DNA of 64,000 nucleotides. Source: Nannocystales bacterium. GTDB taxonomy: Bacteria > Myxococcota_A > Polyangia > Nannocystales > Nannocystaceae. The DNA lies in contig JBOEGF010000001.1 in the NCBI GenBank assembly GCA_050633305.1, forward strand, positions 64,001 to 128,000. Direction: 5' to 3'. Shown here in pieces: positions 23,334 through 27,881 of the stretch. The first letter of the stretch is position 1; each line of letters opens with the position of its first letter. The position numbers were made by a program, and so were the translations under genes. A model generated the notes under the pieces. It did not search any database. It had not been told where the DNA came from and saw nothing but the letters and a program-made list of their open reading frames with translations.

Positions 23334-26300
23334 TCAGCGACGAGGTGCCGGCAAGGTTTGCGCGACCAGTTCCCGTGCGCGTATTCGCGCCTGTCGCAAC
23401 GATTCGGGGTCCCCGGCCATCGCCTTGGCATGCGCGTCTTTGAACGAGATCGTGTTCGGGCTCAGCGGCACGTCGTAGGTCGCCCGCTTGTCCCGCAGGT
23501 CGGTTGACTCGTGGACCCGCATCACCAGAGCACACTCGGGCAGGAAAACCGTCGTGCATCGCTCACCCTCACCCACTGCGATGGGCGTGCCGCTGACGAT
23601 CTTGTATCCGCCTGCGCGCGCCTCGAGCGTCAGCGCCGAAGCGGTGGAGCCGATGTCGAACGCGTCACGGGCGACGACGGTCCCGGCGTGGGTCCCGAGC
23701 AAGACACTGTCGCGGATCTCACCACTGTGAACTCGGGCGTCGATCAGCACGCTCCCGGTCACCGTGACGTCCGCGCCGAGCTGGGTATCGCCAACGACGC
23801 GGTTTCCTTGTGCGTCGGGAAACTCGGGGATCTCGGCCAAGGCGCGGGCGATGGTCCCACCGGGTGTGTCGTCGCGCAGGGCACCGAAGAAGGACGCCAT
23901 GCTGTGGTGCTGACCGATGTCTCCCCAATACTGGTCGCCGAAGTCCATCGCCATCAGCTTCACGGGGCGTCCGTGGCGTTGCTCGAACGTTTGCAGCGCA
24001 CCCACGAGTCGCTCGATGACGCTGGGCATGCGCTCGGCGAGCTGGGCCATGGCAGGGGCGCTGCTGCAGGCGGCTTGCCACGCGGCGGACCGCTGTTGTT
24101 CGGGGAGCGCGGCGATGGTCAGCGCGGTGAACAGCTGTGGGTCGAGATCGGGCCGGTCGCCTCGCTGCGCCTCCTCGTCGTGGACGTCGGCGTGGAACGT
24201 CTCGAGAAGGACATCGGCGAATGCGCCGGAGATCGCGATGGAGCCCAGGTTCACGCCTCCGATGAGTGCATCACCGCGACGTTGCAGAATGCCGCTGTCG
24301 GCGAGCTGCGCCATCTGTGAAAGTGGGCGGCGGGGGATGAAGGCGGTCACCCGTCCGTCGGCATCGACACCCACCCAGTCCTTGTTTGCGGCCGTGTCCT
24401 CGGTGATCGGCTGCATCGAGACGAAGCGGACAATGTCGGCGGCGTCGAATCGGGGATCGGAGCCCGCGAGGTCGAGGGTGGGGATCTGGACCTCGTCGCC
24501 CCATTTGACGACCATGCCCTCGAAGCCGCTGCGGCGCAGGTACGCCTCGACCGGTGCGAAGGTCCGCATGGCCAGCTCGACCAGCGATGCCCGCCTGCGG
24601 GTGGGCCCGACGCGGGCGAACGAGTCGATGGCGGGTTTTTGGCCGCATTCCGCTTCGGTGATCGGGGTGGCTCGGGTGCCGCTTCCAAACACGAATGCGA
24701 TGAGGGCTCCTTGGCCGGCGACGTACCGCGGCCGGGCCCGCTCCCACAGCAGGAGCAGGCCGAACGCTTGGTTGACCGGGAGGTCCTCGAAGAAGGCGTG
24801 GGCGTGTGCAGCACCGAAGTCTGGACGCATGGCGTCGAGTTGCCCTTGCCAAAACGACTGGGCGGGCGCGGAACCACACACCGCGCCGACCAGCGCCGCG
24901 GGGGCCTCGGGGAGCTCGCCTGCGAACAGCTGCTGCCCCAGCGCCACGTTGTGCAGGACGGCGTCGCAGAATCGCGTTTCGTCGGCGCCTGCGAGCAGAC
25001 GCCCCAACAGCCCTCCATCGGCCAGACCGAGGCGGACGATGGCATCGGCCCGCGCCGCGGTGTCCGCTTGTGCGTAGATCCGCAGTTGCGGAGCATTTCC
25101 GGAGGGCCGCACGTGGGCGACATCGCCGGATTCGAACGTGATGCGAATGCCGTCGAGCATGTCGATGGCGCGGATCGGCGTGAACCCGTCGTCGGTTGTG
25201 AAGTGCCGCTGAAGCCGCGCCCACAACCGGGTCAGCACGGGGAGGTCGGTGGCGAGCAGCGCCACAGAGTGGCCCTCGATCCCGACCCCAACGAAGCCGT
25301 CGGAGCTTGTGCTGGCACCGCGAAGCTCGGCGCGGGGCATGGCGTACCGTCGCTTCAAGGCGGCGGATCGCGCGGGTTCGATCGCGTCGAGCAGGCCGGC
25401 GCGGCTGTGGCGGGAGGGAAGCGTGTCGACTTCTGCCAACAGGGAACTGCCCCGCTGCTTGGCCTCGGCGGCGATCCGAAGCGCGACCACGATGGGGAGC
25501 GCGGCATCACGGGTGGGGAGCGGGGCGAGCGTGCCTTGCTCGGTCGCGATCGGCGAAGCGTGGAGAAAGCCGCCGTTGGCTTCCCAGCCGACCACGCACT
25601 GTCCGGCCATGTCGTTCATCGCCGCGATGACCCATGGCGAGCCGATGCGGGTGCGTTGCACGCCCACCCGATCGCCGAAGACGGGCTCGACCATGTCGGT
25701 TGCGCTCACGGGAACCGCGACCGCATCGGCGCCCAGCGCCCGAGCGACGAGCACGCCCAGGACGTCTCCGCCGATGAAGCTGACGCGGCCGTCCGCCCCG
25801 ACGGCCGCCACGAGGGGGCGGTCGCTGTCCCCGTCGGTCGAGATGACCGCGTCGATGACCGCACCGTGGGGTCCCTTGGCATTCGCCTCGTCGGCGAGCC
25901 GTTGGAGTGTCGCCAAGCCATCCTCACCCAGGGCTTCGGTGTCGATCGGAACGAACGACGAGGCTCGACCGCAGGGCAAGACCTCCGCGCCGAGTGCTCG
26001 AAGGATATCGGCGATGAGTTCTCGTCCGACCGCGGAGTGCTCGTACAGCGCGACGCGCAGCCCCTGCAAGACGTTGTGCGGGAACGCGTCGGTGTAGCGG
26101 GCGAGGTAGCGGGCGCGTCCTTGGTCCGTCGGGTCCTCGAGCAGAACCGACGCACCCGGCTTGAACCATCCGTCGTCGTCAAAGTGCGACAGCTCGGGCG
26201 GGCGCGCGTATTCCAACTGCCGAGCGCGGGCGACCGCAGCGAGGATCTCGGCCTCGTCGCTCTTGAGCACCTCTCCGCTCGGCGTGTTGAACTTGATGCC

Positions 26301-27881: not shown

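Follow-up and report, generated by a model that had tools for sequence, protein, structure and literature searches.

Class I phosphomannose isomerase (PMI) of the ManA type and phosphomannomutase (PMM) of the ManB type are normally separate proteins, and together they yield alpha-D-mannose-1-phosphate. GDP-mannose pyrophosphorylases of the ManC type, including the type II PMI-GMP fusions AlgA, XanB and CpsB, are built from PF00483 and PF22640, with or without PF01050. Eukaryote-type GDP-mannose pyrophosphorylases (VTC1, GMPPB) and ADP-glucose pyrophosphorylases combine a nucleotidyltransferase domain with a left-handed beta-helix, and a GDP-fucose pyrophosphorylase (GFPP) domain forms the N-terminal half of FKP from B. 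fragilis (structures 9IIS and 9IIT; PF07959, FPGT/GFPP). In this study, we analyzed a 64,000-nucleotide stretch of a Nannocystales bacterium genome (GCA_050633305.1, contig JBOEGF010000001.1, positions 64,001 to 128,000; hereafter the window), in which one gene encodes a class I PMI, a PMM and a third domain, D3, in a single chain. This fusion is probably a synthase leading from fructose-6-phosphate to GDP-mannose, with D3 as a non-orthologous replacement for ManC. The chemistry is known; the enzyme family and the architecture are new.

The initial annotation, made from the sequence alone, had described one uninterrupted open reading frame (ORF), and this was confirmed: the minus-strand ORF at 23334-27881 starts with GTG, runs through 1515 aa without an internal stop, and has codon-position GC contents (0.73/0.51/0.82) like those of the neighboring genes. 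All of the motifs it had named are present (QVH at residue 101, KPE 136, HAY 263, ANSDN 275, TGSH 518, DGDSDR 683, WEANG 766, RPSG 925), and the third domain, put at about 545 aa, measures 548 aa (residues ~968-1515). The junctions, which it had marked for checking in sequencing data, were in part recovered there: in run X1, one contig reads across the PMM/D3 junction with no gap, and the PMI/PMM junction is covered in that run only by two pieces overlapping by 13 nt, with no single bridging piece. Searching with D3 gave 146 proteins, 833-2652 aa in length. Architecture was examined in 121 proteins, two of them the window's own, with the best 120 of these matches covered; 76 are PMI-PMM-D3 (including the window's two and one with PMI only in part), 23 are PMI-D3, and 22 are PMM-D3, some of these truncated. 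At least 74 triple fusions are thus known besides the window's own, one of which, from Haliangium ochraceum (P0027), sits on a 9.4-Mb contig. An assembly artifact was rejected on the strength of these 74 proteins and the gap-free X1 contig. The closest named relative of the fusion protein belongs to an uncultured Nannocystaceae metagenome-assembled genome (MAG; 86%); the host genome, G000, amounts to 11 Mb and is 92% complete.

By their motifs and profile matches, the first two domains read as ordinary PMI and phosphohexomutase members with intact catalytic motifs, resembling class I ManA and the manB of alphaproteobacterial plasmids. The PMI domain exceeds the cut-offs of TIGR00218 (203 bits vs 116.2) and PF20511 (90.8 vs 22), and falls below that of PRK15131 (236 vs 571). 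Residues Q101, H103, E138, H263, K136 and R282 do not vary among the 68 aligned triple fusions, the window's own protein included; we take the first four (Gln, His, Glu, His) to be the zinc ligands. In the mutase, PGM_PMM I, III and IV score above their cut-offs and II scores 24.3 vs 29.3. S520, D683/D685/D687, E767 and R925/S927 are invariant in the same alignment, and presumably represent the phosphoserine loop, the DxDxD motif, and the sugar and phosphate loops of four-domain phosphohexomutases. The best match among PDB sequences is 4HJH, entitled 'Phosphomannomutase' (E 2.4e-76; second best 3e-14), and the nearest plasmid genes are annotated phosphomannomutase/manB (42-45%).

D3 has no Pfam or NCBIfam match. 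At E 0.01, Pfam found no PF00483, PF22640, PF01050 or PF07959 in this part of the fusion protein; E 0.14 was the best value in searches of PDB sequences with the D3 sequence or profile, and no match came from a plasmid search. The AlphaFold (AF2) model, built from a 94-sequence alignment, has a pLDDT of 97.3 and shows the GFPP-type fold. Its best match is 9IIS (Foldseek E 2e-11; Z 19.3, root-mean-square deviation (rmsd) 4.0, 396 residues aligned, 12% identity), the part of FKP from B. fragilis that acts as GDP-fucose pyrophosphorylase, with which it shares an N-terminal extension, an alpha/beta catalytic domain and a beta-helix. ADP-glucose pyrophosphorylases (Z 13.9) and GDP-mannose pyrophosphorylases (Z 12.9) form the next tiers; VTC1, GMPPB and ADP-glucose pyrophosphorylase (Z 12-14, 12-18% identity) align over about 100 fewer residues, and lack the N-terminal extension and helical insert of D3. 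Among the Atlas neighbors of D3, PF07959 is found on 11-25% of members.

Conservation was scored over 274 D3 regions (220 close and 54 distant, redundant rows included). G1066, G1068, R1070, K1082, D1129 and D1321 show 96-100% conservation, and R1184 and E1032 in 89-100%; the key positions read E1032, G1066-x-G1068-T-R1070, K1082, D1129, R1184 and W1319-x-D1321-x-G1323. We take the GxGxR loop, the downstream Lys, two Mg-binding Asp and a phosphate-binding Lys/Arg to be the residue set of the nucleotidyltransferase superfamily, in part by way of FKP, and G1066/G1068/R1070, K1082, D1129, D1321 and R1184 supply it in D3. In passages of PMC11982464, R80 and K89 are named as the FKP residues for pyrophosphate, D136 and H272 as those for Mg, K187 as the one for the sugar phosphate, and D31 as the one for guanine. 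The G1066-R1070 and K1082-D1129 spacings of D3 (4 and 47) equal those of G76-R80 and K89-D136 in FKP, so the glycine-rich loop Arg, the Lys and the Mg-binding Asp may be equated between the two, a mapping drawn from spacing rather than from residue-level superposition. These invariant residues and the FKP-like fold make D3 very probably an active sugar-1-phosphate nucleotidyltransferase outside the PF07959 and ManC families. The NDP-mannose synthase in one chain that the initial annotation had put forward is supported as to the nucleotidyltransferase and its complementarity to ManC (see below), and amended in that D3 is not a ManC/GMP-family domain. The fusion shares with type II PMI-GMP the predicted reaction, the place in the pathway and the joining to an isomerase, but that isomerase is class I rather than type II.

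Taken by itself, the fold of D3 says fucose; its genomic context says mannose. A role in GDP-L-fucose (or related L-sugar) synthesis like that of FKP/FPGT, with D3 fused to the mannose enzymes only as a loosely linked glycan gene, would agree with the FKP type of both the best fold match and the Atlas family, and with a His kept in 106 of 106 members of a sister subfamily (described below) at what is, by an inferred mapping, the FKP His73 position. It is nevertheless very unlikely. Neither PF07959 nor a GHMP kinase domain of the fucokinase type occurs in the fusion or in any of the scanned relatives (66 + 17 + 14), G000 holds no PF07959 gene better than E 1.2, and two of its three GHMP matches lie in a mevalonate/squalene cluster. 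PMI and PMM, moreover, would deliver mannose-1-phosphate and not fucose-1-phosphate. That G000 cluster, which includes squalene synthase, also encodes a 929-aa GHMP kinase-HMG-CoA reductase fusion (L145:2057-4846).

The partners of D3 are consistent over a wide range of arrangements. It is fused to PMI and/or PMM as PMI-PMM-D3, PMI-D3, PMM-D3, D3-PMM, D3-PMI and PMM-D3-PMI, and in loci L021, L024, L025 and L027 it immediately follows a PMI encoded by its own gene. In two genera of the window's family (G015 and relatives), a D3 only about 33% identical to that of the window is joined to a far more divergent PMI and belongs to a different branch of the tree, suggesting that it was fused independently. 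Divergent D3 copies also adjoin GDP-mannose 4,6-dehydratase-like (Gmd-like) genes, directly upstream in G243 and two genes upstream in G155; these score 388 and 399 bits with TIGR01472 (cut-off 415) and only 101-111 with the RmlB model, so GDP is favored as the nucleotide. Mannose is preferred over fucose because D3 partners PMI and PMM, excludes ManC in the family and phylum genomes sampled, and adjoins Gmd-like genes.

To follow ManC across genomes, its beta-helix (PF22640) was used as the marker. Among 72 genomes of the family, 29 carry D3, 36 carry PF22640, none carries both, and seven, at 60-85% completeness, carry neither; in every one of the 42 high-quality genomes, exactly one of the two is present. 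In the phylum sample, PF22640 was found in 278 of 301 genomes. The 23 that lack it include all nine true D3 carriers, from a scan limited to three scored candidates per genome, and the other 14 have neither. A tenth match to the D3 profile, in G341, had been removed before counting, its ORF being GlgC-like by its motifs. Six ManC-positive f41 genomes were rescored in depth and gave no D3, although G214 has a degenerate D3-like ORF. Fisher tests gave p values of 2e-12 by genome, 0.002 by genus and 0.04 within f41, all overstated in that kin are not independent. G000 itself has no PF22640 or PF01050 match, and the fusion is its sole class I PMI.

The control enzymes bear on what D3 might do instead. 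UGP, present in 64 of the 72 family genomes, does not vary with D3, and D3 as a UGP substitute was rejected. It might still be an active nucleotidyltransferase of other or broad specificity, making ADP-, UDP- or GDP-glucose or a non-GDP NDP-mannose, with the mutase serving as a phosphoglucomutase/PMM. ADP-glucose pyrophosphorylases are indeed its second structural tier, its profile weakly matches a GlgC-like protein, the Glu of the sister subfamily's E-K sugar-binding pair is a Pro in D3, its giant relatives also carry hexokinase or aldolase, and the mutase reaches no PMM equivalog cut-off. We consider such a specificity unlikely: G000 already has GlgC, RmlA and UGP, D3 excludes ManC and not UGP, and its recurring neighbors are PMI and Gmd-like genes. 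G000 also encodes a 249-aa protein that corresponds to just the N-terminal, uridyltransferase half of GlmU (L033:6603-7352).

A 344-aa GMPPB-like nucleotidyltransferase served as the second control and was found in 68 of the 72 family genomes, and in 42 of the 42 high-quality ones, with ManC or D3 alike. The copy in G000 (L032:6157-7191) has a beta-helix, lies near UDP-glucose dehydrogenase, and scores 171 bits with NF052502 (cut-off 440). Were this gene the source of GDP-mannose, D3 could be a non-catalytic sensor or scaffold like GMPPA and the eIF2B subunits, chains of which are among its fold matches, and D3-like ORFs without the Lys and Asp do exist in G214, G341 and G189, that of G341 being distinct from its GlgC-like ORF. 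The near invariance of the catalytic-type Arg, Lys and both Asp in D3, and the lack of ManC exactly where D3 is present in the family genomes, make this role highly improbable. The degenerate domains just mentioned (L141:1-2058(-), L143:1252-3660(+) and L144:832-2427(+), respectively) have no Pfam match and are possible pseudo-enzymes.

Several observations weigh against a GDP-mannose product. According to passages of PMC11982464, FKP of B. fragilis, the closest solved relative, rejected D-mannose-1-phosphate, and 4HJH is termed a phosphoglucomutase in PMC7762576. The exclusion of ManC reflects few independent events (three genera in f1 and four in f41), to which the shallow depth of the phylum scan has to be added. 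Outside these samples, PF22640 also occurs in 4 of 20 further genomes with D3, each of the four titled Verrucomicrobia (L023, L026, L028, L029), and the 16 without it include five close kin and small MAGs with no completeness figure; in P0133, D3 and PF22640 occur in one chain. The divergent D3 copy of G243 is only 353 aa long. In G000, no gmd scored above the cut-off, GDP-mannose would probably go to mannosyltransferases, and the GMPPB-like protein could in principle make it.

With these points considered, we still regard a one-chain GDP-mannose synthase as the probable function. The activities of all three domains, mannose-1-phosphate as the substrate of D3, and GTP as the nucleotide are predicted. 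The zinc-dependent class I PMI domain would convert fructose-6-phosphate to mannose-6-phosphate, the phosphoserine mutase domain would convert this to mannose-1-phosphate, and D3 would join the latter with GTP to form GDP-alpha-D-mannose and pyrophosphate by Mg-dependent GT-A nucleotidyltransferase chemistry. All three steps would thus be carried by a single cytoplasmic polypeptide, which may link them by proximity and co-expression with no fixed tunnel. The initial annotation had seen in the pathway order of the domains a sign of possible channeling, which the six fused orders and separate adjacent genes do not support. A fixed assembly passing on mannose-6-phosphate and mannose-1-phosphate would suit that order in the window's protein and the tight linkers of the 68 triple fusions (interquartile ranges of 21-22 and 53-55 residues between anchor positions). 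However, split forms occur commonly, and no tunnel connects the two sites of FKP (PMC11982464); strict channeling is unlikely because domain order is not conserved across relatives.

The features are collected in Table 1. The WecG/TagA/CpsF-family gene lies 81 bp upstream of the fusion on the same strand and is possibly a co-transcribed polysaccharide gene; it adjoins the fusion in the five closest loci (L010-L014) and is not clustered with it in the other 15 of 20. A sigma-70 promoter and a relevant terminator were looked for, and none was found. Two unannotated ORFs of the window (22516-23205(-) and 33760-34818(-)) are conserved near the fusion in close relatives and have no Pfam or NCBIfam match.

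Table 1. Positions in the window of the fusion gene, its domains and the adjacent glycosyltransferase gene.
Feature	Position	Strand	Basis or remark
Whole ORF, PMI-PMM-D3 fusion	23334..27881	-	1515 aa; 74 other triple fusions
Class I phosphomannose isomerase domain, aa 1-~405	26667..27881	-	TIGR00218, PF20511
Alpha-D-phosphohexomutase domain, ManB type, aa ~416-965	24987..26636	-	Pfam PGM_PMM I-IV
D3, FKP/GFPP-like sugar-1-phosphate nucleotidyltransferase, predicted mannose-1-phosphate guanylyltransferase, aa 968-1515	23337..24980	-	Fold, conservation, ManC exclusion
WecG/TagA/CpsF-family glycosyltransferase	27963..28751	-	PF03808 185 bits; TIGR00696 above cut-off

D3 also occurs in other settings. 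Giant proteins of 2,100-5,600 aa embed it (P0126, P0127, P0132, P0144, P0150, P0156, P0160 and others), often with PMM and sometimes with hexokinase, class II aldolase, CofD or a receiver domain. In the 931-aa P0133, two PF22640 stretches lie in the region after D3, and this chain possibly contains both kinds of enzyme. A standalone copy (P0154) belongs to Ca. Omnitrophus magneticus; a eukaryotic origin of the standalone clade was considered and dropped, its labels being only bacterial or unnamed, and the eukaryotes sit in the sister subfamily instead.

This sister subfamily was found by using as a seed the divergent D3 copy of G123, which is directly followed by a class I PMI. The search returned 1252 proteins, and 119 of the best 120 have no Pfam domain on record. 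Among the matches listed, the named members include Lentisphaerae bacteria and, of the eukaryotes, Undaria pinnatifida, Chrysophaeum taylorii, Chrysoreinhardia, Hyaloperonospora brassicae, Ancoracysta twista and Diplonema japonicum. The Undaria protein EP00904_P006054 is 43% identical to the seed over 97% cover, and matches D3 pairwise at E 6e-12 (22% over 477 aa). A profile-profile comparison of the subfamily with D3 (HHalign) gave a probability of 100% and E 8e-52 over 497 columns at 21% identity, and an invariant E, GxGxR, K, D and WxDxG are common to both; on this alignment, the sister subfamily is homologous to D3. The model of the Undaria protein (pLDDT 96.5) again has 9IIS as its best match (Z 21.3, rmsd 4.2, 401 residues aligned). 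In a tree of 71 picked rows (FastTree, midpoint root), the named eukaryotes cluster with a support of 0.999 inside the bacterial members. The only evidence for diatoms is an Atlas cluster labeled mostly Bacillariophyta, which ranks first for the seed (0.98). A sister-subfamily gene is followed by class I PMI in L040, L041 and L110, and preceded by PMM in L116; in bacteria, Gmd-like genes also lie beside members of this subfamily. PMI or PMM adjoins it in 2 of 80 metagenome loci, which were mostly uninformative because many are short, in pieces or eukaryote-flanked. The PMM that precedes the gene in L116 (L116:3421-5062) is interrupted, with parts in two reading frames. Several contigs with such a gene (L084, L102, L104, L107, L122 and similar) are eukaryotic and intron-poor, with GC contents of 0.48-0.68 and WD40, RHD3, calpain and PRK-like genes as neighbors; they may represent compact picoeukaryote genomes.

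The algal members meet a reported gap. Passages of PMC5778160 state that no MPG gene is annotated in brown algal and diatom genomes, and report MPG activity for Saccharina MPI4, an MPI paralogue, an assignment repeated in part of PMC11468063. By the same passages of PMC5778160, the paralogue does not answer for diatoms with a single MPI. Ostreococcus and Micromonas are likewise described as lacking MPG in a portion of PMC4396506, where an 'unidentified alternative enzyme activity' was proposed. It is conceivable, at somewhat less than an even chance in our judgment, that D3 represents a further class of GDP-mannose pyrophosphorylase with an FKP-like fold and that the sister subfamily fills the enzyme gap reported for brown algae, diatoms and prasinophytes, with EP00904_P006054 as the candidate kelp member. 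The Saccharina MPI4 result is a published rival to this proposal, and at only 21% identity to D3 the substrate may have changed.

In sum, this study describes a family that is predicted to carry out the last step of textbook chemistry, that escapes both Pfam and NCBIfam, and of which no solved or assayed member was found. No paper on the PMI-PMM-D3 fusion or on the D3 family was found in a literature search that covered subscription journals thinly, and the passages on FKP evolution in PMC12732313 do not mention myxococcal proteins. The interest lies mostly in D3 and its algal relatives, and less in the fusion. If the proposed function is correct, the fusion of the culturable Haliangium ochraceum (P0027) would offer a single-gene GDP-mannose biocatalyst. 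The Undaria gene and its sister subfamily are concrete candidates on which to test the missing algal MPG; if the proposal is true, they would supply GDP-mannose for alginate, fucoidan and glycosylation in those algae. In the myxobacteria that lack ManC, D3 would explain how GDP-mannose is supplied.

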